Assembly (NCBI GenBank): GCA_040954595.2
Contig: CM082583.2
Span: 1,188,925-1,252,924 of the forward strand
Direction of reading: 5' to 3'
Source of the DNA: Balanoglossus misakiensis
Lineage: Eukaryota > Animalia > Hemichordata
DNA length: 64,000 nt
Shown here: piece after piece, positions 1-62,571 of the stretch
How the letters are laid out: every line of letters begins with the position of its first letter
How positions within the stretch are numbered: the first letter of the stretch is position 1
The notes under the pieces: model-generated
Seen by the model: only the letters and a program-made list of their open reading frames with translations
Database searches by the model: none
What the model was told of the DNA's origin: nothing
Made by a program: the position numbers and the translations under genes

Positions 1-3000
1 GGTTATCACCGGTTCTGGAGAAGAAGATTTTTTTAAATTTAAGCCAGATTTCAGAAAAAAAATTGTAGCAAAAAAACTGCAACATTGACAGCAAAATTTC
101 CAATTACAAAAATGATGAGTAGAAGGTAGTCTACCTGCATGCCAAATTTGAAGTCGATCTGACTTGTAGTTTCTGAGATCTGAGATTTGCATTTTTTCAG
201 AAAATCCAATATGGCCGCCAAGTCACGTGACTAATTAAGTATTCACAAATCACTGCACATCTACTCATTGACCTTGACCACTGTAGCAAGTTTGAGCAGT
301 GTACCTGCAGTAGTTTCTGAGATTTAGTTGGCCGAAGAATTGACAGGAGAATAAAGAAAGAAAGAAAGAAAGAATTAAAGCTGCAAGCAGCATTGTCCGG
401 GCCCAAGCTCTATTATCTGATCTGATTATTAGATATGCACTTAATTAATGAGTAGAAACATAATGCTGTGTTTTATCCCATGAAACATCTATGTTTGGTG
501 TTGACATAGTGTTAAGTAGGTCAAAGGTCACCCAGAGGTCACCCACAATTTGGGCAGAAAATTTTGACCAATAGTGGTCCATGTCCAACAAAAACCAGAC
601 CTCTAGCCCTTTTGGTTAGCCCGGAATTAGGTATGCACATAAATAGTGAGTAAAGCAGGCGTCACAGGTGACCCAAAACTTTGGCTTTTCATTATGGCCC
701 CATACCTCCAAATGCCAAGGCTGTGCCTGCTTTGGATGCTGAGATATGCAAAAGTAGGTCAAAGGTCATCTGAGGTCATCCAAAATTTGGGCAAAAAAAT
801 TTGACCCCATACTGGTCCATGTCCAACAAAAACCAAACCTGTAGCTCAATTGGTTCGCCTGTAATTAGCTATGCACATAATTAATGAGGTCAGCAGAGGT
901 CAAAGGGGTCATGAAAAGTAGCAAAATATTTTGATCACACACTAATCCACATGCATCAAAAACAAAACGTCTTGCCCTATAGGTTAGCCTGGAAATAGAT
1001 ATGCAGAAATAATAATGTGTGAAAAGTAGGTCAAAGGTCATGTGAGAAATCGCCAAAAATTTGTAACATATTGTAGTCATATGACGATTGATATCCATAA
1101 AAAGAATTTGTATGCTATTAGTTTTTATACTAGAAAAAGGAATTTTAATTTTTCACTGCTTTTTACAAAATCCAATATGGCCGCCATAATCTTCGACCAA
1201 TCACATTCCTCTTCCCAAACTTGATAGACATCTGTTTAATGACCACACACACCAAATCTTGCGACTCGGTTATTGCCGGTTCTTGAGAAGAAGATTTTTG
1301 AAATTTTACTAGGGTTTTTCGAAAATCCAATATGGCCGCCATAATCTTCGACCAATCACAATGATCTTCGCAAACTTGATAGACATCAGTTAGGTGACCA
1401 CATACCCCAAACCCCGTGTCTCGGTTATCACCGGTTCTGGAGAAGAAGATTTTTGAAATTTAAGCCAGATTTCAGAAAAAAAATTGTAGCAAAAAAACTG
1501 CAACTTTGTCAGCATAATTTCCAATTACAAAAATGATTGACAGAAGGTAGTCTACCTGCACGCCAAATTTGAAGTTGATCTGACTTGTAGTTTCTGAGAT
1601 CTGAGATTTTCATTTTTTCAGAAAATCCAAGATGGCCGCCAGGTCATGTGACTAATTAAAAATTCATGGGTTCAATGCACGACTACTCATTGACCTTGAC
1701 CACTGTAGCAAGTTTGAGAACTGTACCTGCAGTGGTGTCTGAGATCTAGAGCGACAAAGAATTGACAGAAGAATAAAGAAAGAAGAAAGAAAGAATTAAA
1801 GCTGCAAGCAGCATTGTCGGGCCCAAGCGCTGATCTTGAATTATATATGCACAGTATGAATGAGAAGAAACATAATTTTCTATCGGGTGTATTATCTCAT
1901 GACATAACAAGGGCGTATGTATTTTTGCAGCTGAAATAGGGTAAAGTAGGTCAAAGGTCACCTGAGGTCATCCAACATTTGGGCAAAATATTTTGACCCA
2001 TGCTGGGCCATGTCCAACAAAAACCAAAACTCTAGCTCTATTGGTTCGCGTGTAATTAGGTATGTGTATATTTAATGAGGTCAGCAGGTGTCACAGGTGA
2101 GCCAAAAATTTGGCTTTACATTTAGGTCCCATCCTGCCAAATGCCAAGGCTGTATCTGCTCTGGATGTTGAGATATGCGAAAGTAGGTCAATGGTCACCA
2201 GAGGTCACCCAACATTTGGGCAAAAAATTTTGATCCCATACAGGTCCATGTCCAACAAAAACCAAACCTCTAGCTCTATTGGTTCGCCTGTAATTAGCTA
2301 TGCACATAATTAATGAGGTAAGCAGAGGTCAAAGGGGTCATGGAAAGTAGCAAAATATTTTGATCACACACTTATCCACATGCATCAAAAACCAAACATC
2401 TACCCCTATAGGTTAGCCTGGAATTAGATATGCAGAAATAATAACATGTGAAAAGTAGGTCAAAGGTCATGTGAAAAATCGCCAAAAATTTGTAACATAT
2501 TTTAGTCACATGACGATTGATATCCATACAAAGAATTTCTATGCTATCAATGTTTAGAGTAGAAAAAGGAATTTCAATTTTTCAATGCTTTTTACAAAAT
2601 CCAATATGGCCGCCATAATCTTCGACCAATCACAATGTTCTTTGCAAACTTGATAGACATCAGTGTAGTGACCATACTCCCCGAATCTTGTGACTCAGTT
2701 ATCGCCCGTTCTGGAGAAGAAGATTTGGGGAGTTTTACTATGGTTTTTCGAAAATCCAATATGGCCGCCATAATCTTCAACCAATCACAATGATCTTCGC
2801 AAACTTGATAGACCTCAGTTAGGTGACCCCATACCCCAAACCGCGTGACTCTGTTATCGCCGGTTCTGGAGAAGAAGATTTTTGAAATTTTGACCAGATT
2901 TCAGAAAAACAACTGTAGCAAAAAAACTGCAACATTGACAGCAAAATATCCAATTACAAAAATGATGGGCAGAAGGTACACTACCAGCACGCCAAATCTG

Positions 3001-3441
3001 AAGTAAATCTGACTTGTAGTTTCTGAGATCTGAGATTTGCATTTTTTCAGAAAATCCAATATGGCCGCCATGTCACGTGACTAATTAAAAATTCATGGGT
3101 TCAATGCACGACTACTCATTGACCTTGACCACTGTAGCAAGTTTGAGAACTGTACCTGCAGCGGTGTCTGAGATCTAGAGCGATAAAAAATGGACAGGAG
3201 AATAAAGAAAGAAAGAAAGAAAGAAAGAAAAACCCCAACGAAACCAATAGGGCCCAAGCGCTTGCTTGCGCTTGGGCCCTAAAAATTCCAACGAAACCAA
3301 TACGGGCCCAAGCCTGGCTTGGCTTGGGCCCGTAAAAAACCCCAACGAAACCAATAGGGCCCAAGCGCTGGTATGCGCTTGGGCCCTAAAAACCCCAACG
3401 AAACCAATAGGGCCCAAGCGCTGGTATGCGCTTGGGCCCTA
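1..3441 (-). mobile_element. Nested stack of at least 3 (probably 4) Helentron/HINE-like non-autonomous elements, ~1.45 kb each
   Basis: Four stacked 5' palindromes GGGCCCAAGC...GCTTGGGCCC at ~3249-3441, followed on the minus strand by (TTTC)n. Bodies lie at ~1795-3248, ~374-1794 and 1-373 (runs off the window). The complete bodies end in sub-TIR GCTTGGGCCC plus hairpin GCTGCTTGCAGC. Same family as 6229-7727. Confidence 0.75.
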
Positions 3442-3480
3442 ACAATATTGAAAATCATTTGCCGAACTATTGAAACTGGG

Positions 3481-3571
3481 CACACACACAGACACACACG
3501 CACACACACACACACACACACAGACACATACACACACACACACACACACAGACACACACACACACACACAC
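3481..3571. repeat. (CA)n microsatellite
   Basis: Directly visible, with a few interruptions. Confidence 0.95.
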
Positions 3572-3789
3572 AAACAAAGTCAACATCGTGAACATCAAAG
3601 TCAAAATAAGTCTATTTCCTAATAAAGTCATTCACTAAAAAGTCCTTAAATGATAAATCTTCCGTAAACTGTTACACGATGTTTGTCATAAGCCATCCCT
3701 ACATCGGTTTAGTATATAGTAAATATGACATACTGTCCGCACACTGATATAGAAATATTTATAAGGAATAGGAACATTATAAAGTTGGG

Positions 3790-4125
3790 TTTAGCTGCTT
3801 TTTGTTTTTCTTCAGATGAATGTATAAACATTATAAACAGTCATAACTTATAATTTGAGGCACCTATCTAAAGTATCGATAGAGCTCTTTGACGTTTGAT
3901 TTTGTGAATTACAATTTAATACATGTCTATTATATTTCAAATTTTCAAACCAAATTCAAGAGTTTGGGAATTTATTTGCAAATCTTCAGAAGAAGTTTGA
4001 AATACCAAAAGTTGACGGACGACGGACGACAGACGACAGACGGACGGATGGACAGACGACGGAGGGACACTTATCAACCTACTGCTACAGCTCGGCTGAC
4101 ACAAGTGACAGCAGAGCAAAAATAA
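3790..4125 (-). mobile_element. HINE-like fragment of a different family
   Basis: (GACG/GACA)n microsatellite followed by an imperfect palindrome and an A-run, the typical HINE end. Left boundary approximate. Confidence 0.4.
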
Positions 4126-4709
4126 ATAAATAAACAAAAAAAAAAAAAAAAAAAAAAAAAATAATAAAAAATAAACAAACAACAACAAAAAAGACAAAAC
4201 AACAACAACAAAAAAAAAAAGCTTAGGCTGTTGAACTTGAAATCATCCTCCAACATGTCATTTTGGTATTGGGTGTATTATACATAGTGATGATGTGTGA
4301 AGATGAGAAAGTCAACAAAACTGTTTCCCAAAGGGTTGTAATGATGGCCCCTTAGCCCCTCGGGCCCATATAAAGTACTGTTTCCATCCGTTTTAACCTC
4401 TTCATAGGCCCTTCTGCCCCTCGGGCCAAATTAATGGACCTGGGGACCATCTTTTCCACCAATATCACCTTTTACATTCAACCAGGTCTTCTTTCACCGT
4501 CGTCCAGTGAATAAAAGTTGTTGTTGTTGTTGTTGTTGTTTTATCGATACAATCCACACATTTTCTGTCGTGGTTGTCATCCTGCAAACACATGTGAAAC
4601 TGATCATCAGAAACAATCTGTTTTCAAGACCCTTGTTTTATTGTTATTTGAGTACACTTCTCTATTTCCTGTATAACTCTACCAAAAGGAGAAAACGTAT
4701 TACTCGTAA

Positions 4710-4744
<35 letters not shown>

Positions 4745-4905
4745 AGAAATAAATAAAAGGAAATGCCTACAGTGTTATCCCTTACCTTGACATTTGCTGC
4801 TCACAATTCCAGCGGTACAGTGGACACTCCATCGGCTAGCACTTTTCGTTTGATGTAGAGGTAATTCATGTTAAGATTGTTTGTTATTTGACTTGTTGTA
4901 TTTTA

Positions 4906-7900
4906 TTAAAGAAATTTTCCACTCATATTTGCATAGTTTCTGAGTGATTCATTCATTTTATGATGAATTGCCTCAACACCGTTCTCCCCTAAAAACCCAA
5001 GGCCAACTCCATATTTCTGTATCTGAGGCAGAACATGTTCCTCGAGCATGTGAAGCTTGGGTGTTATGGGTACTTGGGGAAAATGAACTCTGAGATATAT
5101 AAACAACCCTCTTATGTTAGTACCTGTAAATGAAAAAAAAAAAAAAAAGAATATTGTGTATGAACGAATTACATGTATGTAAGTATATGCAATAAAATGA
5201 GAGTGAGGACATGCTGTTTGAAAGTAGTATCTAATTCATGTATGACGTATAATCCACATATGTGTAAAGAATATAATTATAGTATTTTACACTATTTTCA
5301 ATCAACAAGATAATTCAAACACTAGGGTAACAGAATAGTCTAGTTATTTTATACTTACTCAAGGATTCTATTTCATCACCAGTTAATGGCCTACACAGGT
5401 TATATATATTGTGACAGTTGGCAAAGAACATGAAGAGTGGTTGGTACTTGTCATATATATACTCGGCGTCCTCTAAAAGCTCTGGGCAAACATCTGTTAC
5501 CACAGTTACTGGAGTTAAGCAAATCTTCTCAACATGCTGGGGCTAAACAAAGAGAAAAGACATGAAATAATACTTATTATTTGGCATGAAGAATGCAACT
5601 ATGCATTTATAGCATTCACAAAACAGCAAATTTAATGACAAAATCCTAGCCAGTTAATAACCTGTTTACAATCTGCAAGCACTGAAATGTCATAAAAAGA
5701 TCACCCTTTAATAATATTTTGATCCTTGATCACATAAAATTAACCAAATTCTCAATTAGAGAGAGCAGTTAATGGTGGTTACATCAGTACATCAGTACTA
5801 ATGTATTTCGACAGAAGGGAAGTTTCTTGAAAACCTCAGACACGTATACACTGACTATGAAGTGAAAAGCATGCATGCAGGATAATTTGATGCTGACAAA
5901 CCTTACAACACCTATCTACATGATTACCAACAAATGAACGCCCATGGTATGCCTGCCTGTGTACTTTTATACTGACCAATGTCCTATCTAGTGCTCTAAA
6001 ACAATAACCTACTTCAGTAGGTAACAAACTGTCTAAATCCCTGGCTTCAATTTCCTAGAAATATCAATGAGATCATGGTTAAAAAGTTGCAGTCACTACA
6101 TCTTTAGATAGGAAATATCACTAAACAAGGTATTACTATTTGTAACTTATGTTGAAACTGAAATAGCTGAATATTTTATCAATGTGAATCACAGAATCCT
6201 AATAAAACATGAACTTCATGCAACCTAGTTAGGGCCCAAGCCAAGCCAGGCTTGGGCCCTATTGGTTTCGTTGGTATTTTTCAGTCTTTCTTTCTTTCTT
6301 TCTTTCTTTCTTTATTCTTATGTCAATTCTTTGTCGCTCTAGATCTCAGACACCACTGCAGGTGCAGTTTTCAAACTTGCTACAGTGGTCAAGGTCAATG
6401 AGTAGTCGTGCATTGAACCCATGAATTTTTAATTAGTCACGTGACCTGGCGGCCATATTGGATTTTCTGAAAAAATGCAAATCTCAGATCTCAGAAACTA
6501 CGAGTCAGATCGACTTCAAATTTGGCGTGCAGGTAGACTACCTTCTGTCAATCATTTTTGTAATAGGAAATTATGCTGACAAAGTTGCAGTTTTTTTGCT
6601 ACAATTTTTTTTCTGAAATCTGGCTTAAATTTCAAAAATCTTCTTCTCCAGAACCGGTGATAACCGAGACACGGGGTTTGGGGTATGTGGTCACCTAACT
6701 GATGTCTATCAAGTTTGCGAAGATCATTGTGATTGGTCGAAGATTTTGGCGGCCATATTGGATTTTCGAAAAACCCTAGTAAAATTTCAAAAATCTTCTT
6801 CTCAAGAACCGGCGATAACCGAGTCACAAGATTTGGTGTGTGTGGTCATTAAACAGATGTCTAACAAGTTTGCGAAGGGGATTGTGATTGGTCGAAGATT
6901 ATGGCGGCCATATTGGATTTTGTGAAAAACGATTAAAAAGTAAAAATTCCCTTTCTAGCCTAAAAATTGATAGCACAGAAATTCTTTTTATGGATATGAA
7001 TCATCATATAACAAGAATAAGCTATAAATATTTTGGTAATTTTGGCAATGACCTTTGACCTACTTTTGACGCATCATTTTTCTGCATATCTAATTCCAGG
7101 CTAACCAATAGGGCTATAAGTTTGTTTTTTGATGTATGTGGATTTGTATGCGATCAAAAAATTTCGCTACTTTTCATGACCCCTTTGACCTCTGCTGACC
7201 TCATTAAATATGCGCATACCTAATTACAGATGAACCAATAGACCTAGAGGTTTGGTTTTTGTTGGACATGAACCAGTATTGGGTCAAATTTTTTTGCCCA
7301 AATGTTGGGTGACCTCGGATGACCTTTGACCTACTTTTGCATATCTCGACATCCACAGCAGATACAGCCTTGGCGTTTGGAGGTATGGGGCCATAATAAA
7401 AAGCCAAAGTTTTGGGTCACCTGTGACACCTGCTTAACTCATTATTTATGTGCATACCTAATTCCGGGCTAACCAAAAGGGATAGAGGTCTGGTTTTTGT
7501 TGGACATGGACCACTATGGGTCAAAATTTTCTGCCCAAATTGTGGGTGACCTCTGGGTGACCTTTGACCTACTTAACACTATATCAACACCAAACATAGA
7601 TATAACCTTGATATTTCATGGGATAAAACACAGCATTATGTTTCTACTCATTAATTACGTGCATATCTAATAATCTGATCAGATAATACAGCTTGGGCCC
7701 GGACAATGCTGCTTGCAGCTTTAATTATAATTTGTTTTGTTCCTCATCAATTTTGAAAACTGAACACTTCATAAAAGCTATACAACAGTTCACTATCTTG
7801 ATCACTAGCTTATAGCGTTTGTGTAATTGTAGGGTTGCAGAATGCTGGTCACCTAATCATTGTATGTTCAGTATTACCCAAAAGATTATTACCTTCTCCT

Positions 7901-10116
7901 CAGCACTACACAGTAACTCGACTCTTTCCTCTTTCAGTCGATGAACTTCACCCAAGGGTACATCGTCTTTGTCATCCTCATCGAGGTACCCAAAGGCGAT
8001 AACACTAAAAATCTATGCTACATTAGACACAATGGTCAATGACAAACAGATTTTTGACAATTATATGAAACAGTATCTCTCAGACAAGATACAAAAGTGA
8101 TTTTTAGAAGAAAAAAAAATCCATAGTAACATTGTGATGGAATGTAATTTCACACAAGTTTTATAATGTTTGATAACATGTGTAATCCGTATGTAGGTTT
8201 GTGTAAAATGTGTAAATATACAATGTACTAATATATAAACTGACTATACCTTTTCTATAGTTTCAATGTATGTGTTAAAGTTTGCAGGTTGAATGACAGG
8301 TTCATCCACCTCCCCTGTTGTGCTTAGTTTCTTGTATATTTTCTTGTCAAGTTCTATACACTCAGACTCAAGCATCGTAAAGAACATAAGATATACGCCG
8401 AGACTGATGTGCAGCCCTGGCACTGCTACCTGTAAAATAGACAAACATCCAATAATGCAAGTAACTGTCATAAATGGATAAAAGTCACTTCTGTCTTTTC
8501 TTTCCATTAAACAAAGACTAGGAAGAATGAATGCTATAATATTGGAGAGAATACACATTGCACTGGAGAAGAAGTCAACAGACCCCCCTACATCATATAT
8601 ATAGTTGCATTTCATGTGGGTTGGTTAGACTGTGTGATATAATAAGGTTGATTATAGCACATTGCTTTAAAATTGGCAGTATGTACTCACTCTTTCTATT
8701 GGGATACTTATGAGTGGAGTGCGGACACAGTTGTTGTACAGTTTTGCTTTCTTCAACACTCCACCACCATCTTTTTCATATTTATTATGGTCAGAGATGA
8801 TTGATTCCAAGGTCCTAGCCTGGACTTGAGGTCTGTCTTCAGGTACCATGGAACATATGTCCTTTGTTGTCAGGCACCACAAACAAAAGTGTTTTCCTTG
8901 GATAAAAAAAATAGATGAATCTGATCATAACTAACTTACTCATGAAATAGTATGCACCTTAACAGAATAACAAACAGGTTCACAACAACATCAAAGACAG
9001 TTAACCAGAATAATGATGACTGACTGTGTGCATGTACATGTGACAAAATTTTTACAATGTACATCTTACAATTATCAAGCACTTATCATTTGGTCCACTC
9101 AGTCCATACATTTTGGTTAGATATTCATAATCACCCATTACATGCACCTTGATTCTGAAATCTCTGCATAAACAATAGACAAAAAAAATGTAAGTCAGTA
9201 TGTGCTTAATAAATGATTGAAACTCAATTTTAAAATGTGTATAGAATAGGTGCATGTAAAAGAGGGAATGAATGGGCCAAACAGTTGATGATTACAGAAG
9301 ACAGGTATGAGACAGGTAGGTAAATGGGTGATGTATGAGTCACTAGCTTACAGGTAAAATGTGTAAACTATTTTAGTATTAACATGTTAAGATGTGTTCT
9401 ATGATATATTTATGGTATCTGCAATTTCAGGCTACATCACCAATGGATGAATATATGAGGGGGACTATCTAAACCTGTTATGTATTGCCCATACAAGCAA
9501 GGGTCAGATCAAACTGTTTGATTAAATACAGTATGACTTGAAATTTTGATAAAGCATACCTCCATTTAGAATAATCAAGATGGTTTACTTCAGACATTAG
9601 ATGTTCAGTTGCTGTTTGGAGGTTGTGGTAGGTATCAGTGCCGCGATACATGTTTAGGATTATTGTGCTCTTGATGGAATTTGGGTGTTCAACATTGCAC
9701 ACCTCCAAACACGTCTTCATTAGATCGCCTCCTTTATCACCACCGACTTTAATCCAAATCTCTTCTTCTGGTATTACTGCTCCATGCCACGTCAATTTGT
9801 CAGACCTGAATTGAAATAATTTTTAATCAGAGGTGAAGATATTAAATTGTATGCATCAACTGTTCAATCACTTTGAGAGATTGGACATTTATTAAATATG
9901 CTTCCACAACATTGAGCTATTCTGAAATTAGACAATTTAATTCTTCAAACACGAATTTATCTTCCAGTAACCTGGATTACTTATACATGTATCTGACTGC
10001 AAGGCATGAAACTTAGGCATATTACTTATTATGTACTACGGTGTTACTGGTAGTATAATTTTATATTACTATCATACATATAAGTCACTGTATGTGACAG
10101 TACACAACTTGTTCTA

Positions 10117-10159
<43 letters not shown>

Positions 10160-12207
10160 ATGTATGTATGTATGTATGTATGTATGTGTTTTATCATTGT
10201 TTTCAATTGATCTCTTAGTGAATTATATTACAAATTACCTATCTAGTTCCTGAAGGTATCTGAAACAAATACTCTCCAAGTTGGTGCTAATGCTTGGTGC
10301 CAGTCTACATTCAGTGCCAAGATTTCCAGTCACTGGATTTTTCACATGGAACTGAAGGAGTAGGTTCTTGGCTGACACTTCAATTTCTCCAAGTAGACTC
10401 TTTGCTTCTTCCCTATCCCTATTCTCTCCAGGAAAATTTATTTTCCATTTTTTCAACCACCTATGAATACAACAAGTACATAATGCAATGGCAAATGTAA
10501 ACATGAAGAAAATACACATGAGAGTGATATCATCATGACAACTTTTGGTTATGTTGTACTCATGAATCAGTAAATCAGTAAAATAAATTTTGCCTTTTAT
10601 ATTTCATGGTTAATGTCAATGTACCTAAATTCAAAACATACCTCCGCAATTTTCTCAACTTGTTCCATGGGATTGAGAGGTCTGCTTTGACTGCGAGTCC
10701 TGCACCAGGAGGGATTTGTGGTGTGGTCTTGAGAACATTGTTTGCTCTCCTCCATTCAGTCTGTAGTTGTGTTTTGTTGGAGAGATCATCCTCCCCACTC
10801 AAAACCCTCCTTTGAGACTCGATGTGTTGAGCTCTGCTTCTTTTTGTTGTTGAAGATGCAGTACTACTCTTTGTCTTAGGGTGAGGTGTATATGTCATAT
10901 GGAATGGCTGGTTGTAGCAATGTAAATGTAGAAAGAAAAAAAAGTATTTACTAGTATGTAACAATTCATATTTATAATATGAAAGACACATGATGCAAAT
11001 GCAAACTGATTTCACAATGTAGATAACTGTAGTGTTAAAATCAATGTAGATTTATGAAATGATACTGCCAATTGATACATGAAAACACACTTACCCCTCC
11101 TTTTGTTTTGAATCGTACAGGTGCTCCTTTCCTACTATCATCTGTTAGATCAAGCTTTCGCTTTACACACTTAGTTGTCAGGTCTTCAAATCCAGGGGTC
11201 TGTTCAATGTTTGGAGTGTCAAGCAATATTTGGACAGCCTTATGTACGTAATGATGAGATTGTTCTCTCCTTACAATTGGAGCAGTCTTGATCTGTGGTG
11301 GAGTTTCTACTGGTTCTACTGGTGATGGTTGTGGCAAGAGGGCATAATCATGCTCAACAAAGATTGGTACAGGCGTGGACTTAACCTGACAATTCTTAAC
11401 ATGATCTTTCAATTCACTAAGTTTAACAATAGCTGTACACCCTTTCCACGCATAGTCACAGGATAGCTTTAGGTCACTAATCAAATTCATCAAGTGCACA
11501 GGAATAGGCAATATACTTGTGGGTGTGATGTCTTTCCTGCATATTGGGCATGTTGGCGAGCTATTCACCCAGTGTTTTATGCATGGAGCACAATAGATAT
11601 GATGACCCTCACACATTAGCTGTATGGGTTCATCAAAAACCTCTTTGCATATTAGGCATTCTAAATTTGCTGTTATTGAATTAAATCTTTCCACACATAA
11701 AGGAATTTGTGTCTTTAATGATTTACAAGCTTTCATTGTAATTTCCTGTTCTAAACTTTCCACTAAATTTCTGTCTACACTGGTGCTTGCTTGTTTAGAA
11801 TTAAATATATCATTTTCAGAAGCACTGGAACAAGGTGTACACTGGGACCTTTGCTTACTAGGTTTCCCCCCCCCCCCCCCCTTCTTACTGTACCTGATAC
11901 ACACATGGCATTCACCAGTTCTTGAGTGTTTGCACCATTCTGCAATTACTATTTTATGGCTGCAAGATTTTCCAGACAGAGTTGCTGATTTCAAACGTCC
12001 AAGTGTCTTTTTGCATTTGTGGCAGAAATTAGCTGGGTAAGTGGCACTGCTTTCCGGACAATCGATTCCAAAATAAATACGTAAATCCTCCTGAAAATCT
12101 GCACATTTATAAATGCGAGACGATCCTCCAGACGAGCGAATTTTATCTCCACAAATGCGACAACTACTATTGAGGACAAGTTGATGAAAATCAAACGTTT
12201 GAGCCAT
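4906..12207 (-). CDS. RAG1-like DDE transposase (Chapaev/Transib/RAG1 lineage), ~994 aa, 11 exons, with N-terminal Cys/His domain, C3HC4 RING and a second Zn finger
   Basis: Phase-consistent exons: 12207-11095, 10907-10642, 10460-10239, 9805-9560, 9163-9087, 8896-8691, 8429-8250, 8012-7893, 6054-5902, 5542-5359, 5123-4906. Motifs in order: CRICG..FCHKC..W.KH..C.VC; RING CLIC..C.GHHIYC..C..CPIC; C...GC..H...C; GLAVKADLSIPWNKLRKLRR; KVGGDKGG (D1); MGDYE (D2); HFCLWC; PGLHISLG; FVGNH; TPKLHMLEEH; GENGVEAIH (E). The intron-5 donor reads ATAAGT. The C-terminal end is uncertain. Confidence 0.85.
6229..7727 (+). mobile_element. Full-length HINE/Helentron-like non-autonomous element in intron 8 of the RAG1-like gene
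   Basis: 5' AGGGCCCAAGCCAAGCCAGGCTTGGGCCCT palindrome, then (TTTC)n and internal degenerate repeats. The 3' end is GCTTGGGCCCGGACAATGCTGCTTGCAGCTTTAAT. No TSD seen; T-rich flanks. It is the reverse-complement homolog of 374-1794. Confidence 0.75.
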
Positions 12208-12954
12208 AATTAAAGATGAACTATTCGGAATTATCGGAAATGTAAACAAATGCCGGCTACCATCAGCTGTCGGCAGAATTGAAAAGGGCGCTCTTTTTAC
12301 GTAATACGTAAACAATCGATCGTTACCATGGAGCGACCGCGGCCGAGAAAGTCTGACTGCGGCCTGGTGCAAACACTGCTTGAACTTTCACACAATGAAT
12401 CACACTTCACAGTAAAATTACGTTGCATATCATAAAAAATCTTTTTAATGATAAAACGTGGCTTAAAATACATACCGTCGATCTAAAAAATAGTGTCACT
12501 TCCGGGTAATGGTCATGGTTTTGGCAAAGGGTTACGTTGACTTCGCGTGAAATATTTCATACAACATTGACGTCGAGCGACTGAACCTTTGACCCCTGAA
12601 ACGTCCGAGAGTTTACGATGTCGAAACGATTATCTTCGTGCTTGACTATGCTTCCATATTTGGAAAAATACGGCAAAATGCCGGACCTGTCCGAAGGAAT
12701 CCGAAATGGACGCCATCATAGTCTCGTTCGATATTACAAGTTATCGCGTTAATCTATGAGAACTACCGTGCGTTGGTTGTGTTTTCTCTACTCCAATCAG
12801 TATGTCGCCCGCACGCGATAATAACAGACGTGACCACTCATCGCCTCCTCTGCCTCCTCCCAACATCATGCTTTGCAGAAAGTCCACCAATCAAAGCACG
12901 TTCCATATATACTTAGCCATATCTCAATTTTCCACCAACTTAGGGGACCATGTC

Positions 12955-13545
12955 TGCCTCCTCCTCTTCCTCCTCCTCCTCCTCCTCCTCCTCCTCCTCC
13001 TCCTCTTCCTCCTCCTCCTCCTCCTCCTCCTCCTCCTATTCCTCCTCCTCCTCCTCCTCTTCCTCCTCAGCTCCTCCTCCTCCTCCTCCTCAGCTCCTCC
13101 TCTTCCTCCTCCTCCTCCTCCTCCTCCTCCTCCTCCTCGGCTCCTCCTCCTCCTCCTCCTCAGATCCTCCTCCTCCTCCTCCTCCTGATCCTCCTCCTCC
13201 TCCTCCTCCTCCTCCTCCTGATCCTCCTCCTCCTCCTCCTCCTCCTCCTCCTCTTCCTCCTCCTCCTCCTCCTCCTCTTCATCCTCCTCTTCCTCCTCTT
13301 CCTCCTCAGCTCCTCCTCCTCCTCCTCCTCCTCCTCCTCCTCCTGATCCTCCTCCTCCTCCTCCTCCTCCTCAGCTCCTCCTCCTCTTCCTCCTCCTCCT
13401 CCTCCTCCTCCTGATCCTCCTCCTCCCCAAATCCGAGTGCTACGGCTCCTCCTCCTCCTCCTCCTCAGCTCCTCCTCCTCTTCCTCCTCCTCCTCCTCCT
13501 CCTCCTCCTGATCCTCCTCCTCCCCAAATCCGAGTGCTACGGCTC
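12955..13545. repeat. (CCT)n low-complexity tract, ~590 bp
   Basis: Directly visible. It ends in a duplicated CCCCAAATCCGAGTGCTACGGCTCC motif. Confidence 0.95.
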
Positions 13546-13555
13546 CAACCTATAC

Positions 13556-16500
13556 TACTCCGCTCTAAAGTGCCGGGGCTTCAGCTAAACCATGCCGTAG
13601 GAAATCCGACGTAATCACCGTTGATAACTTACGCCAGTCTGTGTCATATAGAGCCGGTGCACCAGCCGAGTCACGCCGTAGGAAATCTGACTTGATCAAC
13701 GTGGTCAATGTACGCCTGTTTCTGCTCTAGAGTGCCGGGGCTTCAGCTGAGCCAGGCCGTGGGAAACCCGACGTGATTACCGTTGTTAACTTACGCCAGT
13801 TTGTGTCCTATATATAGTGCCGGGGCATCAGCCGTGCCAGGCCGAAGGAAATGTGAGTAGATCAACGTGGTCTCTGTACGCGTGTTTCTGCTCTAGAGTG
13901 CCAGGGCTTTAGCCAAGCCATGCCGTAGGAAATCTGACTTGATCAACGTTGCTAACGAACGCTAATGTCTGTCATAGTGTGCCGGGGTTTTAGTCGAGCC
14001 AAGCCGTAGGAGATCAGACTTCATCAACGTGGTCTCTGTACGCGTGTTTCTGCTCTAGAGTGCCGGGGCTTTATCCAACCCATGCCGTAGAAAATCTGAC
14101 TTGATCACCGTTGCTAACGTACGCTAGTGTCTGTCATATTGTGACGGAGATTTAGCCGAGCCAGGCCGTAGAAAAATCGACTTGTTCAACGTTACCAGTG
14201 TGCAACTGTTTCTGCTCTAGAGTGTCAGGGTTTTAGCCGACTTATGCTGTAGGAAATCTGAGTTGATGAACGGGAATTCAATGTTAGAAAACCCGTGTGG
14301 AAAGTATCTCTACCCGTTTGAAACTAAGAAAAGAATTTATTCTTATTTATTTTGTAAAAAAGACAATTTTTCGAAAAAAAGTCGAAAAATTGCAATTTTG
14401 TCTTGGGTGATTCAAATTATACCGCCTTTTCTGGAATTTGCAGCACTTTTTACAAGAGAACGACACTTCATGCTCCATAATATTTCCGAAAATGAAGAAA
14501 AGAGTTAATTTTTTATGATTTTTCAAAAATTTACCATTTTTGTCAAAATATGGCCAAAATGGCTATTTTTCTTGAATTCCGTCAATATCTCTGCATTTTT
14601 GGAGTGGTCGAGAGTTTTAACATACAATCAACATGTCATATATGATCAGGGCACCAAATTCGAAGAATAAAGGTTTTTTTATTTTTTTTTGTAAAAATGA
14701 CATTTTCAAGGAAAATTTGGTAAAACGCAATTTTGTCTGCAGTGAGCCAAATTAGACGGTCTTTTGTGGAATTTGTATCGATATATACATACGAAGAGCA
14801 TTCTATACTCCATCAGATTTCCGAAAATGTAGAAAACAGGTATTATTTGTAATTTTCAAAAATTTACCATTTTGACCAAATTGTGGCTAAAATTGTTATT
14901 TTCGTGATGAATGCCGCCAGTGTCACTGCTTTTAAAAGCCATAAAAACTTTTAACACACAAGCAATTGTTTATATATGATCAGGTCACCGAATTAAAAAT
15001 ATAAAGAATGTTTTGCCTAAAAATGACCTTTTTGGTGCAAAAACGAATAAAACGCAATCTTGTATTAAATCAGTTCATTCAGAGTGCATTTTTTATAATC
15101 AGCACCATTTTTACATATATTGAAAATTTCATACATCATCAGATATCCAAATATGAAAAAATGATTTAGATTTTAGATGATTGTCCAAAATTAGCTGATA
15201 TCTAATAAATGTAGTATTGAACCGTTCTGTCCCCCCCCCCCTACATTATATGCGGTACGCCGATGTCAGCTTACCCGGCAGTACTGCAGGCCGTGCCCCC
15301 AAATAACGTCGGTGTTTGAAACGCCCTGGTTAAATTCGGGCTTTCTCTATAAATTGACAGGCAATAATGCAGTCCTACCGGAACAAATGTCGAGTGTTGA
15401 CCCGCTGTGACTTTCCCTGTTCGGTTTGCCCGACTTAGCCAACGTCTTTGTACTAGAGTGTCGGGTCTTTTGCAGAGCCAGGCCGAAGGAAATCCGACTT
15501 GATCACCGTTGCTAACGAACGCTAGTGTCTGTCATGGTGTGCCGGGGTTTTAGTCGAGCCAGGCCGTAGGAGATCTGACTTGATCATCGTGGTCAATGTC
15601 CGCGTGTTTCCGCTCTAAAGTGCCGGGGCTTCAGCTAAACCAGGCCGTAGGAAATCCGACGTAATCACCGTTGATAACTTACGCCAGTCTGTGTCATATA
15701 GAGCCGGTGCACCAGCCGAGTCACGCCGTAGGAAATCTGACTTGATCAACGTGGTCAATGTACGCCTGTTTCTGCTCTAGAGTGCCGGGGCTTCAGCTGA
15801 GCCAGGCCGTAGGAAACCCGACGTGATTACCGTTGTTAACTTACGCCAGTTTGTGTCCTATATATAGTGCCGGGGCATCAGCCGTGCCAGGCCGAAGGAA
15901 ATGTGAGTAGATCAACGTGGTCTCTGTACGCGTGTTTCTGCTCTAGAGTGCCAGGGCTTTAGCCAAGCCATGCCGTAGGAAATCTGACTTGATCAACGTT
16001 GCTAACGAACGCTAGTGTCTGTCATAGTGTGCCGGGGTTTTAGTCGAGCCAAGCCGTAGGAGATCAGACTTGATCAACGTGGTCTCTGTACGCGTGTTTC
16101 TGCTCTAGAGTGCCGGGGCTTTATCCAAGCCATGCCGTAGAAAATCTGACTTGATCACCGTTGCTAACGTACGCTAGTGTCTGTCATATTGTGACGGAGA
16201 TTTAGCCGAGCCAGGTCGTAGAAAAATCGACTTGTTCAACGTTACCAGTGTGCAACTGTTTCTGCTCTAGAGTGTCAGGGTTTTAGCCGACTTATGCTGT
16301 AGGAAATCTGAGTTGATGAACGGGAATTCAATGTTAGAAAACCCGTGTGGAAAGTATCTCTACCCGTTTGAAACTAAGAAAAGAATTTATTCTTATTTAT
16401 TTTGTAAAAAAAGACAATTTTTCGAAAAAAAGTTGAAAATGGTAATTTTGTCTTGGGTGATTCAAATTATACCGCCTTTTCTGGAATTTGCAGCACTTTT

Positions 16501-19500
16501 TGCAAGAGAACGACACTTCATGCTCCATAATATTTCCGAAAATGAAGAAAAGAGTTAATTTTTTATGATTTTTCACAAATTTACCATTTTTGTCAAAATA
16601 TGGCCAAAATGGCTATTTTTCTTGAATTCCCCCAATATCTCTGCATTTTTGGAGTGGTCGAGAGTTTTAACATACAATCAACATGTCATATATGATCATG
16701 GCCCCAAATTCGAAGAACAAAGGTTTTTTTATTTTTTTTTCTAAAAAAGACATTTTCAAGGAAAATTTGGTAAAACGCAATTTTGTCTGCAGTGAGCCAA
16801 ATTAGACGGTCTTTTGTGGAATTTGTATCGATATATACATACGAAGAGCATTCTATACTCCATCAGATTTCCGAAAATGTAGAAAACAGGTATTTTTTGT
16901 AATTTTCAAAAATTTACCATTTTGACCAAATTGTGGCTAAAATTGTTATTTTCGTGATGAATGCCGCCAGTGTCACTGCTTTTAAAAGTTATAAAAACTT
17001 TTAACATACAAGCAATTGTTTATATATGATCAGGTCACCGAATTAAAAATATAAAGAATGTTTTGCCTAAAAATGACCTTTTTGGTGCAAAAACGAATAA
17101 AACGCAATCTTGTATTAAATCAGTTCATTCAGAGTGCATGTTTTATATTAAGCACCATTTTTACATATAATGGAAATTTCATACATCATCAGATATCCAA
17201 ATATGAAAAAATGATTTAGATTTTAGATGATTGTCCAAAATTAGCTGATATCTAATAAATGTAGTATTGAACCGTTCTGTCCCCCCCCCCCCTTACATTA
17301 TATGCGGTACGCCGATGTCAGCTTACCCGGCAGTACTGCAGGCCGTGCCCCCAACTAACGTCGGTGTTTGGAACGCCCTGGTTAAATTCGGGCTTTCTCT
17401 ATAAATTGACAGGCAATAATGCAGTCCTACCCGACCAAATGTCGAGTGTTGACCCGCTGTGACTTTCCCTCTTCGGTTTGCCCGACTTAGCCAACGTCTT
17501 TGTACTAGAGTGTCGGGTCTTTTGCAGAGCCAGGCCGAAGGAAATCCGACTTGATCACCGTTGCTAACGAACGCTAGTGTCTGTCATGGTGTGCCGGGGT
17601 TTTAGTCGAGCCAGGCTGTAGGAGATCTGACTTGATCATCGTGGTCAATGTACGCGTGTTTCCGCTCTAAAGTGCCGGGGCTTCAGCTAAACCAGGCCGT
17701 AGGAAATCCGACGTAATCACCGTTGATAACTTACGCCAGTCTGTGTCATATAGAGCCGGTGCACCAGCCGAGTCACGCCGAAGGAAATCTGACTTGATCA
17801 ACGTGGTCAATGTACGCGTGTTTCCGCTCTAAAGTGCCGGGGCTTCAGCTAAACCAGGCCGTAGGAAATCTGACGTAATCACCGTTGTTAACTTACGCCA
17901 GTCTGTGTCCTATATATAGTGCCGGGGCATCAGCCGTGCCAGGCCGATGGAAATGTGAGTAGATCAACGTGGTCTCTGTACGCGTGTTTCTGCTCTAGAG
18001 TGTCAGGGCTTTAGCAAAGCCATGCCGTAGGAAATCTGACTTGATCAACGTTGCTAACGAACGCTAGTGTCTGTCATAGTGTGCCGGGGTTTTAGTCGAG
18101 CCAAGCCGTAGGAGATCAGACTTGATCAACGTGGTCTCTGTACGCGTGTTTCTGCTCTAGAGTGCCGGGGCTTTATCCAACCCATGCCGTTGAAAATCTG
18201 ACTTGATCACCGTTGCTAACGTACGCTAGTGTCTGTCATATTGTGACGAGATTTAGCCGAGCCAGGCCGTAGAAAAATCGACTTGTTCAACGTTATCAGT
18301 GTGCAACTGTTTCTGCTCTAGAGTGTCAGGGTTTTAGCCGACTTATGCTGTAGGAAATCTGAGTTGATGAACGGGAATTCAATGTTAGAAAACCCGTGTG
18401 GAAAGTATCTCTACCCGTTTGAAACTAAGAAAAGAATTTATTCTTATTTATTTTGTAAAAAAGACAATTTTTCGAAAACAAGTCGAAAATGGTAATTTTG
18501 TCTTGGGTGATTCAAATTATACCACATTTTCTGGAATTTGCAGCACTTTTTACAAGAGAACGACACTTCATGCTCCATAATATTTCCGAAAATGAAGAAA
18601 AGAGTTTTATTTTTTATGATTTTTTAAAAATGTACCATTTTGTCAAAATATGGCCAAAATGGCTATTTTTTCTTGAATTCCGTCAATATCTCTGCATTTT
18701 TGGAGTGGTCGAAAGTTTTAACATACAATCAACATGTCATATATGATCAGGGCACCAAATTCGAAGAACGAAGGTTTTTTTATTTTATTTTTCTAAAAAT
18801 GACATTTTCAAGGAAAATTTGGTAAAACGCAATTTTGTCTGCAGTGAGCCAAATTAGACGGTCTTTTGTGGAATTGGTATCGATATATATATACGAAGAG
18901 CATTCTATACTCCATCAGATTTCCGAAAATGTAGAAAACAGGTATTTTTTGTAATTTTCAAAAATTTACCATTTTGACCAAATTGTGGTTAAAATTGTTA
19001 TTTTCGTGTTGAATGCCGCCAGTGTCACTGCTTTTAAAAGTCATAAAAACTTTTAACATGCAAGCAATTGCTTATATATGATCAGGTCACCGAATTAAAA
19101 AAATAAAGAATGTTTTGCCTAAAAATGACCTTTTTGGTGCAAAAACGAATAAAACGCAATTTTGTATTAAATCAGCTCATTCAGAGTGCATTTTTTATAA
19201 TCAGCACCATTTTTACATATAATGGAAATTTCATACATCATCAGATATCCAAATATGAAAAAATGATTTAGATTTTAGATGATTGTCCAAAATTAGCTGA
19301 TATCTAATAAATGTAGTATTGAACCGTTCTGTCCCCCCCCCCCCTACATTATATGCGGTACGCCGATGTCAGCTTACCCGGCAGTACTGCAGGCCGTGCC
19401 CCCAAATAACGTCGGTGTTTGAAACGCCCTGGTTAAATTCGGGCTTTCTCTATAAATTGACAGGCAATAATGCAGTCCTACCCGAACAAATGTCGAGTGT

Positions 19501-22500
19501 TGACCCGCTGTGACTTTCCTTCTTCGGTTTGCTCGACTTAGCCAACGTCTTTGTACTAATGTGTCGGGTCTTTTGCAGAGCCAGGCCGAAGGAAATCCGA
19601 CTTGATCACCGTTGCTAACGAACGCTAGTGTCTGTCATGGTGTGCCGGGGTTTTAGTCGAGCCAGGCCGTAGGAGATCTGACTTGATCATCGTGGTCAAT
19701 GTACGCGTGTTTCCGCTCTAAAGTGCCGGGGCTTCAGCTAAACCATGCCGTAGGAAATCCGGCGTAATCACCGTTGATAACTCACGCCAGTCTGTGTCAT
19801 ATAGAGCCGGTGCACCAGCCGAGTCACGCCGTAGGAAATCTGACTTGATCAACGTGGTCAATGTACGCCTGTTTGTGCTCTAAAGTGCCGGGGCTTTAGC
19901 TAAACCATGCCGTAGGAAATCCGACGTAATCACCGTTGATAACTTACGCCAGTCTGTGTCATATAGAGCCGGTGCACCAGCCGAGTCACGCCGTAGGAAA
20001 TCTGACTTGATCAACGTGGTCAATGTACGCCTGTTTCTGCTCTAGAGTGCCGGGGCTTCAGCTGAGCCAGGCCGTAGGAAACCCGACGTGATTACCGTTG
20101 TTAACTTACGCCAGTCTGTGTCCTATATATAGTGCCGGGGCATCAGCCGTGCCAGGCCGAAGGAAATGTGAGTAGATCAACGTGGTCTCTGTACGCGTGT
20201 TTCTGCTCTAGAGTGTCAGGGCTTTAGCAAAGCCATGCCGTAGGAAATCTGACTTGATCAACGTTGCTAACGAACGCTAGTGTCTGTCATAGTGTGCCGG
20301 GATTTTAGTCGAGCCAAGCCGTAGGAGATCAGACTTGATCAACGTGGTCTCTGTACGCGTGTTTCTGCTCTAGAGTGCCGGGGCTTTATCCAACCCATGC
20401 CGTTGAAAATCTGACTTGATCACCGTTGCTAACGTACGCTAGTGTCTGTCATATTGTGACGAGATTTAGCCGAGCCAGGCCGTAGAAAAATCGACTTGTT
20501 CAACGTTATCAGTGTGCAACTGTTTCTGCTCTAGAGTGTCAGGGTTTTAGCCGACTTATGCTGTAGGAAATCTGAGTTGATGAACGGGAATTCAATGTTA
20601 GAAAACCCGTGTGGAAAGTATCTCTACCCGTTTGAAACTAAGAAAAGAATTTATTCTTATTTATTTTTTAAAAAAGACAATTTTTCGAAAACAAGTCGAA
20701 AATGGTAATTTTGTCTTGGGTGATTCAAATTATACCACATTTTCTGGAATTTGCAGCACTTTTTACAAGAGAACGACACTTCATGCTCCATAATATTTCC
20801 GAAAATGAAGAAAAGAGTTTATTTTTTATGATTTTTTAAAAATGTACCATTTTGTCAAAATATGACCAAAATGGCTATTTTTTCTTGAATTCCGTCAATA
20901 TCTCTGCATTTTTGGAGTGGTGGAAAGTTTTAACATACAATCAACATGTCATATATGATCAGGGCACCAAATTCGAAGAACGAAGGTTTTTTTATTTTAT
21001 TTTTCTAAAAATGACATTTTCAAGGAAAATTTGGTAAAACGCAATTTTGTCTGCAGTAAGCCAAATTAGACGGTCTTTTGTGGAATTTGTATCGATATAT
21101 ATATACGAAGAGCATTCTATACTCCATCAAATTTCCGAAAATGTAGAAAACAGGTATTTTTTGTAATTTTCAAAAATTTACCATTTTGACCAAATTGTGG
21201 TTAAAATTGTTATTTTCGTGTTGAATGCCGCCAGTGTCACTGCTTTTAAAAGTCATAAAAACTTTTAACATACAAGCCATTCTTTATATATGATCAGGTC
21301 ACCGAATTAAAAAAATAAAGAATGTTTTGCCTAAAAATGACCTTTTAGGTGCAAAAACGAATAAAACGTAATTTTGTATTAAATCAGTTCATTCAGAGTG
21401 CATTTTTTATAATCAGCACCATTTTTACATATAATGGAAATTTCATACATCATCAGATATCCAAATATGAAAAAATGATTTAGATTTTAGATGATTGTCC
21501 AAAATTAGCTGATATCTAATAAATGTAGTATTGAACCGTTCTGTTTCCCCCCCCCCCTATATTATATGCGGTACGCCGATGTCAGCTTACCCGGAAGTAC
21601 TGCAGGCCGTGCCCCCAACTAACGTCGGTGTTTGTAACGCCCTGGTTAAATTCGGGCTTTCTCTATAAATTGACAGGCAATAATGCAGTCCTACCGGAAC
21701 AAATGTCGAGTGTTGACCCGCTGTGACTTTCCCTCTTCGGTTTGTCCGACTTAGCCAACGTCTTTGTACTAGAGTGTCGGGTCTTTTGCAGAGCCAGGCC
21801 GAAGGAAATCCGACTTGATCACCGTTGCTAACGAACGCTAGTGTCTGTCATGGTGTGCCGGGGTTTTAGTCGAACCAGGCCGTAGGAGATCTGCCTTGAT
21901 CATCGTGGTCAATGTACGCGTGTTTCCGCTCTAAAGTGCCGGGGCTTCAGCTAAACCAGGCCGTAGGAAATCCGACGTAATCACCGTTGATAACTTACGC
22001 CAGTCTGTGTCATATAGAGCCGGTTCACCAGCCGAGTCACGCCGTAGGAAATCTGACTTGATCAACGTGGTCAATGTACGCCTGTTTCTGCTCTAGAGTG
22101 CCGGGGCTTCAGCTGAGCCAGGCCGTAGGAAACCCGACGTGATTACCGTTGTTAACTTACGCCAGTCTGTGTCCTATATATAGTGCCGGGGCATCAGCCG
22201 TGCCAGGCCGAAGGAAATGTTAGTCGATCAACGTGGTCTCTGTACGCGTGTTTCTGCTCTAGAGTGTCAGGGCTTTAGCAAAGCCATGCCGTAGGAAATC
22301 TGACTTGATCAACGTTGCTAACGAACGCTCAATATTTTTAAGCGTAATTTGAAAACATACCTTTTTACTCGGTTTTATGTGTAACGTGTTCGATTGTGTC
22401 CTTTGAACTATTTTTACCAGCCTTGTATTTTTTAATCTACTGTTTTAGCTGTGCACAATGCGCTGAGACGTATGTGTAGCGCATTTTAAACAATTCTTAA

Positions 22501-38369: not shown

Positions 38370-39531
38370 ATTACAAGGTAAATCCAGTAATAACATTACT
38401 GTTATCCAAATGCACTGTATATGCATGTACATGTAGTAAGTTTTCACCTTGACATGCTGTGTACAGTAAATCTATAGAAGTACAGACAAAAAGGACAGCA
38501 AGTCAACTCAACATGAATAAACGCATTTGATGATCTTGTGTAGTTTATGAAACAAGTTTTTCATAAAATATCCTACAAAGTTAATTGTGATAATTTATGG
38601 TACAATCAACCACTTGGGCAAACACGTGGACATTCAAAACTTTTTTGGATTAGTCATGTTGATCTACCTTTGGCCTGTTTTGCATACATGTATAAAGATT
38701 TTATTAACATTGCTTACCTGTGACATCTATGTTTTGTGACGTCCCATATCTAATAAGACAGGCTTCTATATGTTTCCATCGTTCCTGCAACATCTCCATG
38801 TTTAACTGTGAGATTGTACCAGTACTCTTTTCTATGGTGTGTATCATGTCCCGCACAGTCTGTATATTAAAACATAGCCAATGTCAGCTCATTAGTATAA
38901 ATCTAATGGAGAATTTGACAGAATGCAGCAGCATGCATCGCTTTGCATGGTTCATTTTCTAAGCAAAACATGTGTGGAAGCAATAAGGGTTAGGCAATTT
39001 AACATTTAGCACAATGATACACAGGAATTGAGCTAGCCCATGATCATTATTCTGACTGCACAAAAAACATGCTAAAACTTGGCAATAATTGATGGTACAT
39101 GACACTGTAAGCAAACACTTACAGCATGGTTTATGGAGTTAAACCTCCCAATACTCAACAGCTTAATGCTTGTAATTGTAATTGTTTTTCTCTTTTATGT
39201 GTTCAAATTACATACATTTACATTAGATGAATGTTCTTGCTGAATACCATTGCATATGTAGAAGGACATGAATATGTGTGATATTTAAAATTAAAAGGTT
39301 TCCAGAGAACCTATTTGTACTTGCCTTCTCTGGTTCTTTTTGATAGAATGGGTATCTCTTTATAGTTTCATTCGCTCTCAGGGAAGGTGGTTGTTCATGG
39401 ATCCATGACACACGGAAATCTGCCGAAAGCTTAAATAGCTCATCTAATACAACCTTCCTCGGTCGTGCTTTGGATATTTCCAAGATAAGTTTTTTGTCAT
39501 TTCTCTCTTGTGTTGCATTGTCACTTTTTTG

Positions 39532-40092
39532 GGATGACTCTGCTGGGGGAATCACAGGGCTGGTAGTGTGACGATTACCTGTGGATGACTCTGCTGGGGG
39601 AATCACAGGGCTGGTAGTGTGACGATTACCTGTGGATGACTCTGCTGGGGGAATCACAGGGCTGGTAGTGTGACGATTACCTGTGGATGACTCTGCTGGG
39701 GGAATCACAGGGCTGGTAGTGTGACGATTACCTGTGGATGACTCTGCTGGGGGAATCACAGGGCTGGTAGTGTGACGAATACCTGTGGATGACTCTGCTG
39801 GGGGAATCACAGGGCTGGTAGTGTGACGATTACCTGTGGATGACTCTGCTGGGGGAATCACAGGGCTGGTAGTGTGACGATTACCTGTGGATGACTCTGC
39901 TGGGGGAATCACAGGGCTGGTAGTGTGACGATTACCTGTGGATGACTCTGCTGGGGGAATCACAGGGCTGGTAGTGTGACGATTACCTGTGGATGACTCT
40001 GCTGGGGGAATCACAGGGCTGGTAGTGTGACGATTACCTGTGGATGACTCTGGTGGGGGAATCACAGGGCTGGTAGTGTGACGATTACCTGT
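39532..40092 (-). repeat. Coding 51-bp VNTR, 11 copies (TGNRHTTSPVIPPAESS)
   Basis: Directly visible, in frame within ORF 39223-40572. Confidence 0.95.
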
Positions 40093-41722: not shown

Positions 41723-41743
41723 CGGTGACCATGAGACTTACAC

Positions 41744-54724: not shown

Positions 54725-54926
54725 TATGGAAAGCCGTTGGGGACCCCCGACAACTTCTCTCAATACATGGGTAAAGTCCATAGACAAACGATAGGAACGC
54801 ATATGCTGAAAATATGACGCACATTGGGTGCCGACGCCGTAATCTAAAATGCCGGTAACAACCAAATTTTTGCCGACACCTTTACTCCATCTACCGGCGC
54901 CGACAAAATCACAACCGGTGATTTGA

Positions 54927-55587: not shown

Positions 55588-62571
<6,984 letters not shown>

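Follow-up and report, generated by a model that had tools for sequence, protein, structure and literature searches.

Chapaev transposons in which a Chapa domain and a RING precede the transposase core were already reported by Kapitonov and Koonin in 2015 (PMC4411706), whose supplementary file 5 aligns the Chapa domain, the RING and a second zinc finger in seven named families (Chapaev-1/2_BF, -1/2_NV and -4/6/7_HM). That paper infers that Chapa and RING were joined to the core in the ancestor that Chapaev, Transib and RAG1 share. Chapaev elements are characterized by C(2)C, LH and H(4)H motifs, by CAC..GTG ends and by a 3-4-bp target site duplication (PMC4079192), the C(2)C and H(3-4)H motifs being common to the wider CMCT clade (PMC12730594), and Pfam DUF1280 corresponds to Chapaev transposases (PMC3985635). 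The core of TransibSU is >30% identical to RAG1 (PMC4411706) and the cores of RAG1L family A are 35-39% identical to it (PMC10462144); in bioRxiv 10.1101/100735 Chapaev matches are kept apart from the RAG transposons, and the ProtoRAG duplication is given as 5 bp. The function of the Chapa domain in Chapaev is described as lacking experimental validation (bioRxiv 10.64898/2026.01.24.700457). Here we analyze a 64,000-nucleotide stretch of Balanoglossus misakiensis DNA (contig CM082583.2, positions 1,188,925 to 1,252,924; the whole stretch is called the window), in which an intron-rich gene very probably represents a damaged, non-autonomous and decaying copy of a RING-bearing Chapaev cut-and-paste DNA transposon. 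The find is an ordinary one and adds little that is new, because both the architecture and its bearing on the origin of RAG1 have been in print since 2015 and the family amounts to hundreds of clusters.

Gene model and DDE core

The gene runs on the minus strand from 12207 to 4906, and its eleven exons join into a spliced translation of 994 aa with no internal stop:

11095..12207, minus strand: exon 1, aa 1-371, with Chapa/NZD, linker, RING, second zinc finger and a helical region
10642..10907, minus strand: exon 2, followed by an intron common to 4/4 relatives
10239..10460, minus strand: exon 3, as in the spliced model
9560..9805, minus strand: exon 4, with the first catalytic Asp, D557 (9736-9738), and the Pfam DUF1280 match
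9087..9163, minus strand: exon 5, with the second catalytic Asp, D627 (9130-9132)
8691..8896, minus strand: exon 6, with C646 and C649 (ZnC2)
8250..8429, minus strand: exon 7, with the LH motif, aa 716-717
7893..8012, minus strand: exon 8 remnant, with ~126 nt gone at 8001/8002; 8003-8012 are likely intron, taken in via a cryptic acceptor
5902..6054, minus strand: exon 9, 61% identical to Ptychodera P0002
5359..5542, minus strand: exon 10, as in the spliced model
4906..5123, minus strand: exon 11, with H947 and H952 (ZnH2) and the catalytic E973 (4972-4974); truncated at ~4915

The nearest relative is a Glandiceps talaboti protein (LOC144451311, here P0001), followed at a distance by Ptychodera flava P0002 and P0003 (39-40% identity) and by a Diadema protein (29%). 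The model is far beyond chance, because it is 59% identical to the Glandiceps protein over 827 aligned residues, and because three of its ten intron positions (after aa 459, 641 and 710) recur with identical codon and phase in all four related elements tested. The introns after aa 615, 861 and 922 were each found in two of the four, again with identical codon and phase; for introns 1, 3, 7 and 8 the intron script recovered the full junction in none of the four, and intron 1 matches two of the related elements described below (L080 and L036) by eye only. GT-AG borders flank nine of the ten introns, the exception being intron 5, which carries AT at 9086. Because intron positions recur in related elements, intron richness is a trait of the family, in which intron 5 normally begins with GT. 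A twelfth exon near 4360-4410 was rejected, as the pyrimidine tract is absent and relatives are intron-free from the last exon to the stop.

The same eleven pieces had been joined in phase by an earlier sequence-only reading of the window, which placed the product close to RAG1 in length. The pieces do join without an internal stop, but intron 5 has an AT donor, the start drawn for exon 8 is not genuine and ~18 aa are missing; the 994 aa thus reflect damage, and the nearness to RAG1 in length is partly accidental.

Exon 4 matched DUF1280 with an E-value of 4.9e-19 (69 bits, against a cut-off of 25), and DUF1280 was found in 25/25 aligned relatives. The RAG1 core Pfam family gave no match at E up to 1 with any exon or with the Glandiceps relative. 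The core motifs quoted in the sequence-only reading are located at aa 555 (GGDKGG), 626 (GDYE), 646 (CLWC), 714 (PGLHISLG), 943 (TPKLH) and 968 (GENGVEAIH), and their likeness to Chapaev was confirmed by the DUF1280 match and by the Chapaev hallmarks C(2)C (C646/C649), LH (L716/H717) and H(4)H (H947/H952), which are conserved across ~100 relatives. The D..D..E residues and the CxxC/HxxxxH pair that it listed were also recovered: among relatives with a residue at the site, D557, D627 and E973 are kept in 100/100, 96/97 and 74/79, respectively, and E973 aligns with the Glu of the ProtoRAG GNE motif. We infer that these three residues form an RNase H-fold active site, and C646, C649, H947 and H952 a zinc site, as in RAG1 and Transib.

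The fold was modelled with AlphaFold2 (AF2) on the Glandiceps relative (59% identical to the window protein; mean predicted local distance difference test score, pLDDT, 75.6). In alignments with RAG1 cores the model reached Z 23.9, at 14-16% identity, the best match comprising 413 aligned residues with a root-mean-square deviation (rmsd) of 3.9 and 16% identity (Foldseek E 2e-15); the Z scores were 22.1 with ProtoRAG and 20.1 with HzTransib (PDB 6PQX; 368 aligned, rmsd 4.1, 14% identity). The RAG1/Transib-type core fold proposed earlier is thus also the predicted one. The NBD-like helix was not borne out as written, the structural match starting only at RAG1 residue ~459. Furthermore, the GRPR/K motif of RAG1 and RAG1L-A, at the start of the NBD, is absent at the exon 1-2 boundary, where we presume its place to be from the layout of RAG1. 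At the sequence level the core profile of the family reaches ProtoRAG weakly (E 0.04). The core is predicted to work like that of RAG1 and Transib, yet it lies far outside RAG1L.

N-terminal zinc domains and their distribution

Upstream of the core, exon 1 encodes the following domains:

11899..12186, minus strand: Chapa/NZD double zinc finger, ligands C16, C19, C62, C65 and H8, H94, C100, C103
11539..11658, minus strand: C3HC4 RING, aa 184-223 (Pfam zf-RING_2, E 7e-8)
11389..11460, minus strand: second zinc finger, C250, C257, H269, C273, whose last ligand is Cys, not His

The RAG1-like domain order that had been described, with Chapa/NZD, RING, second finger and DDE core, is therefore the order of the model. 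Both the RING and the second finger were correctly recognized, and the RING is of the C3HC4 type, but the second finger ends in C273 and not in His. In a sequence search, aa 1-116 matched the mouse RAG1 NZD (PDB 21WB) with an E-value of 2.6e-6, which was the best PDB match. By inspection, the Chapa ligands fit the type I pattern as it is defined in bioRxiv 10.64898/2026.01.24.700457, and by eye they agree with the published Chapa alignment; the RING and second finger follow the Chapa domain in the same layout as in the published Chapaev RING subgroups, a comparison likewise made by eye. When exon 1 was modelled with AF2 (mean pLDDT 68), the RAG1 RING-zinc finger structure 1RMD ranked first (Z 11.0, rmsd 2.6, 109 aligned), TRAF6 and LNX scoring within 1 Z of it. 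The match list was filled by RINGs, and 21WB was absent from it; because these fold searches returned RING matches and not 21WB, the support for the Chapa fold comes from its sequence. The exon-1 linker contains a 16-base C run at 11866-11881, which is read as five Gly in a region where relatives have a GGRP..GRP stretch, and the frame stays open.

The profile search retrieved 878 clusters at E<=1e-30, the best 150 of which were listed, and Chapa and RING occurred together in 23 of the 181 other proteins retrieved. A further homologue search, which covered proteins of 1998-5000 aa, yielded no match. A quick core tree was built (53 rows, with the Shimodaira-Hasegawa-like approximate likelihood ratio test, SH-aLRT, as the only support measure; proteins that were <780 aa or covered the core incompletely, such as P0002, were excluded). 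In this tree the window model is sister to the Glandiceps protein (SH-aLRT 100), inside the family. The Chapa plus RING label is scattered over the tree, needing nine changes, at least eight of which are forced by starred branches; proteins labelled as having none may be truncated gene models. This scatter fits an old presence with repeated loss, or truncated gene models, and not one separate clade. The RING can accordingly no longer be taken as a hallmark of RAG1 and RAG1L alone, as the sequence-only reading had it, since seven named Chapaev families and the 23 relatives carry Chapa and RING. The separate RING-bearing lineage that it proposed was not recovered either, the label being scattered and the gene nesting in a described family. 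The public models P0001, P0002 and P0003 skip or stop at the exon-9 boundaries, and P0001 is without Chapa; they are likely mis-predicted transposase models for these reasons.

Complete relatives and the ends of the element

A scan of a metagenome collection gave 106 related stretches, the best 80 of which were retained, and 41 longer loci were examined for ends. A CAC..GTG pair with a 4-bp duplication was observed in 15 of the 41, a count made without a shuffled control. The loci L075, L078, L079 and L080 share common termini and carry four different 4-bp duplications, with copies that are 99.8-100% identical (element at ~6814-11491), and L055, L061, L066 and L067 also have ends alike and different duplications. 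These two sets are the convincing cases. L075/L078/L079/L080 are a complete RING-bearing Chapaev family, recently active because near-identical copies sit between different 4-bp duplications, and they are better experimental material than the window copy. L080 is 4,678 bp long and has Chapa, RING and core in one gene; L047 and L036 resemble it in having all three inside a single element, and the three elements span 4.4-4.8 kb. L078 carries an insertion. Chapa and RING matches were present at 49/80 related loci when flanks were included, a count that we do not rely on. As for a RAG2L candidate, the single gene of L080 leaves no room for one; in positions 1-4900 of the window, where the 3' end of the copy is lost, there is no open reading frame (ORF) of at least 110 aa except a microsatellite frame.

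The window copy retains a 5' end:

12741..12770, minus strand: 5' terminus, beginning CACGGTAGTT, 563 nt upstream of the ATG

This site had the top score (35.5; runner-up 30.0) among the 1,715 CAC-starting 30-mers of the window when compared with the 5' end of L080. CACGGTAGTT at 12770 was the sole exact match among three matches at <=1 mismatch, 2.65 of which are expected by chance. On the plus strand the outer flank begins with CGTT, which would be the 4-bp target duplication expected there. In relatives the Chapa match starts ~450-520 nt inside the element end, compared with 563 nt from end to ATG in the window copy. CACTAT at 12495 had been considered as the 5' end, but comparison with relatives favoured 12770. 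When 3600-4950 was searched blindly for inverted repeats with 12200-15500, only low-complexity or <=11-nt matches appeared. Just outside the 5' end lies a (CCT)n tract of ~185 copies (12957-13523).

Lesions of the window copy

The sequence-only reading treated the copy as intact, and this view could not be maintained. Two DNA runs of one sample, X1 and X2, both contain the stretch and are possibly, not certainly, the source of the window; the comparison with their contigs covered the part of the gene after exon 3. Two of the lesions are

9085..9086, minus strand: AT donor of intron 5; GT in the X1 and X2 contigs, and GT at the same codon and phase in 4/4 relatives
6229..7726, no strand assigned: 1.5-kb repeat in intron 8, foreign to the transposon, with 86-92% identical copies at 373-3282

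At 8001/8002, ~126 nt comprising an acceptor and ~18 codons are deleted, the X1 contig having 486 letters against 360 window bases. The loose ends in X2 at this point translate to EQAECIETE, a segment absent from the model by comparison with the Glandiceps protein, relative to which the model is ~18 aa short at the start of exon 8. The modelled start of exon 8 is spurious, a consequence of this deletion, and the deleted piece was not found elsewhere in the 64-kb window. The intron-8 repeat is absent in X1, because an X1 contig (1,844 nt, depth 205) covers 4915-6225 and 7760-8002 with 38 letters between them, provided that this is one record; since a run contig lacks it, the repeat is likely a polymorphic insertion. 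At the C terminus, the stop at 4906 leaves 21 aa past E973, compared with a median of 52 in relatives, 67/74 of which have at least 45. Both X1 and X2 contain a version that diverges at 4915 and whose frame stays open over its first 30 new letters, which resemble the next helix of the relatives; the continuation of this version past 4915 was not found elsewhere in the window. X1 also contains a window-like version, which leads into multi-copy sequence and has a depth of 132, against 62 for the open version. At least two versions of the locus exist at 4915, depth not being equivalent to copy number. The window thus differs from the run contigs by four lesions, namely the AT donor, the ~126-nt deletion, the 1.5-kb intron insertion and the cut C-terminal tail, and the species likely still has a version with less damage. 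The loss or displacement of its 3' end would make the window copy immobile as well as non-autonomous.

Mechanism and alternative readings

The intact form of the element would encode a DDE transposase of ~1,040 aa, which would bind the CAC ends, cleave with its D-D-E site, excise the element at its CAC...GTG ends and reinsert it with a 4-bp target duplication. Transib performs hairpin-type cleavage without a RAG2 partner; by likeness to it, the proposed mechanism would need no RAG2 partner and cleavage may be of the hairpin type. By analogy to RAG1, the RING could serve in dimerisation and as a ubiquitin ligase. It is the relatives, and not the window copy, that were shown to have paired termini, 4-bp duplications, a single gene and near-identical copies at different sites.

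Several observations weigh against reading the locus as a decaying Chapaev copy. Neither the 3' terminus of the window copy nor its target duplication was found within the 64-kb window, and some of the lesions may be errors of the window assembly. Intron 5 has cryptic GT donors that keep the frame, so that a shortened protein is possible; these alternatives lose or gain residues beside D627 and the CxxC, and some remove D627. The fold was predicted on the Glandiceps relative, not on the joined window protein. Because the core tree was built without named Repbase Chapaev, RAG1 or RAG1L proteins, it is Pfam, motifs, termini and a by-eye comparison with the published alignment that place the gene in the family. 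Finally, the run contigs are nearly uniform, so that the copy number may be low, as for a host gene.

This last point leads to the alternative that survives best, which is nevertheless quite improbable: a single-copy host gene, once a Chapaev transposase, that was domesticated and is conserved in acorn worms, of which the window would show a bad allele or a mis-assembly. Besides the uniform contigs, it would account for the 59% identity to Glandiceps, far above that of the next relative (39%), for the retention of all catalytic residues and for the failure to find a second copy in the window. However, a recognizable 5' transposon terminus has been kept, one copy has accumulated several disabling changes, the version with the truncated C-terminal tail is the deeper one in X1 (132 against 62), and both exonic differences between window and runs alter an amino acid (2/2, small numbers).

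Even less probable is a separate RING lineage that stands between Chapaev and RAG1L, or the capture of a RAG1L N terminus by a Chapaev core. The PDB ranks of the RAG1 NZD for aa 1-116 and of 1RMD for the RING-zinc finger model would suit such an origin, and so would the weak correlation of N-terminal with core similarity ranks (rho 0.25, p 0.24, 23 relatives). However, there is no Chapaev-named protein among the PDB matches, so that RAG1 may come first for want of competition, and TRAF6 and LNX score level with 1RMD; P0166 and P0002, which match best in the N terminus, are close core relatives too; the same architecture is published for Chapaev and present in 23/181 relatives; and a label that needs at least eight changes on the tree does not mark one separate clade. 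A true RAG1L (ProtoRAG/TransibSU) gene, which the similar domain order and fold might suggest, can be dismissed with near certainty, as the core is 12-16% identical to RAG1/ProtoRAG (>30% in TransibSU, 35-39% in RAG1L-A), the family profile reaches ProtoRAG at E 0.04, the RAG1 core Pfam families are unmatched, and relatives show 4-bp, not 5-bp, duplications and no space for RAG2L.

With the locus read as a decaying Chapaev copy, its practical value is as a pointer to material: the more intact version in the public DNA runs, or the L075-L080 copies, could serve to test a RING-bearing Chapaev transposase biochemically for the first time. It is also conceivable, if unlikely, that the acorn-worm Chapaev branch keeps the N terminus closest to the one that RAG1 inherited (type I Chapa, C3HC4 RING and zinc finger) and that an intact mobile copy survives in the species. 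If true, this would offer the first tractable test of the RAG1 ubiquitin-ligase and NZD modules working in a transposon before domestication.

Other features of the window

The intron-8 insertion belongs to a repeat of ~1.45-1.5 kb, whose ends contain GGGCCC and which has a 155-bp duplication inside; it forms a tandem run at 1-3443 and has one inverted copy at 6229-7726. A short hairpin near one of its ends is reminiscent of Helentron-type non-autonomous elements. A higher-order tandem array at 13559-28203, and also at ~50970-54730, consists of ~2.05-kb units, up to 98% identical, with runs of 81-bp subunits. Three ORFs on the minus strand at 39223-41737 (451, 122 and 258 aa), one of them with an 18-aa repeat run, gave no convincing Pfam match. 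A 658-aa open frame on the plus strand (48280-50256) has no Pfam match at E up to 1; by its motifs it resembles an EnSpm/Mirage-type DDE transposase. A reverse-transcriptase-like ORF (58831-60237) precedes a GIY-YIG-like ORF (60238-61089), and a partial copy lies inverted at 58021-58950; the ORFs of 58021-61089 gave no Pfam match below E 0.08, and the region resembles a Penelope-type retroelement.

Comparison with known systems

The closest described systems are the RING-bearing Chapaev elements, which the window gene resembles in having Chapa, RING and second finger before a DUF1280 DDE core, together with C(2)C, LH, H(4)H, a CAC terminus and the type I Chapa ligands described in bioRxiv 10.64898/2026.01.24.700457; it differs from them in being damaged and without a 3' end in the window. 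It is tied to none of the named Chapaev families, the Repbase proteins having been compared by eye through the published alignment. Glandiceps P0001 and Ptychodera P0002 and P0003 share its architecture, and their models break at the same exon-9 boundaries; the P0001 model is without Chapa and exon 9, yet it has the 18 aa missing in the window copy.

With RAG1 and RAG1L/ProtoRAG (PDB 6XNX, 4WWX, 6B40, 21WB, 1RMD) the window protein shares the domain order, the NZD-type finger, the RING-zinc finger module, the predicted core fold, and the D-D-E and zinc positions. It differs from them in core identity, which is 12-16% in structural alignments of the Glandiceps relative, in having no GRPR/K at the expected place and in a second finger that ends in Cys. 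Complete relatives differ from RAG1L/ProtoRAG in being without a RAG2 partner, and those with a 5' end near-identical to that of the window copy have duplications of 4 bp, against the 5 bp of ProtoRAG. The likeness to Transib (HzTransib, PDB 6PQX) lies in the predicted core fold and in the single gene; canonical Transib is described as being without Chapa and RING (PMC4411706; bioRxiv 10.64898/2026.01.24.700457), whereas the window protein has both.

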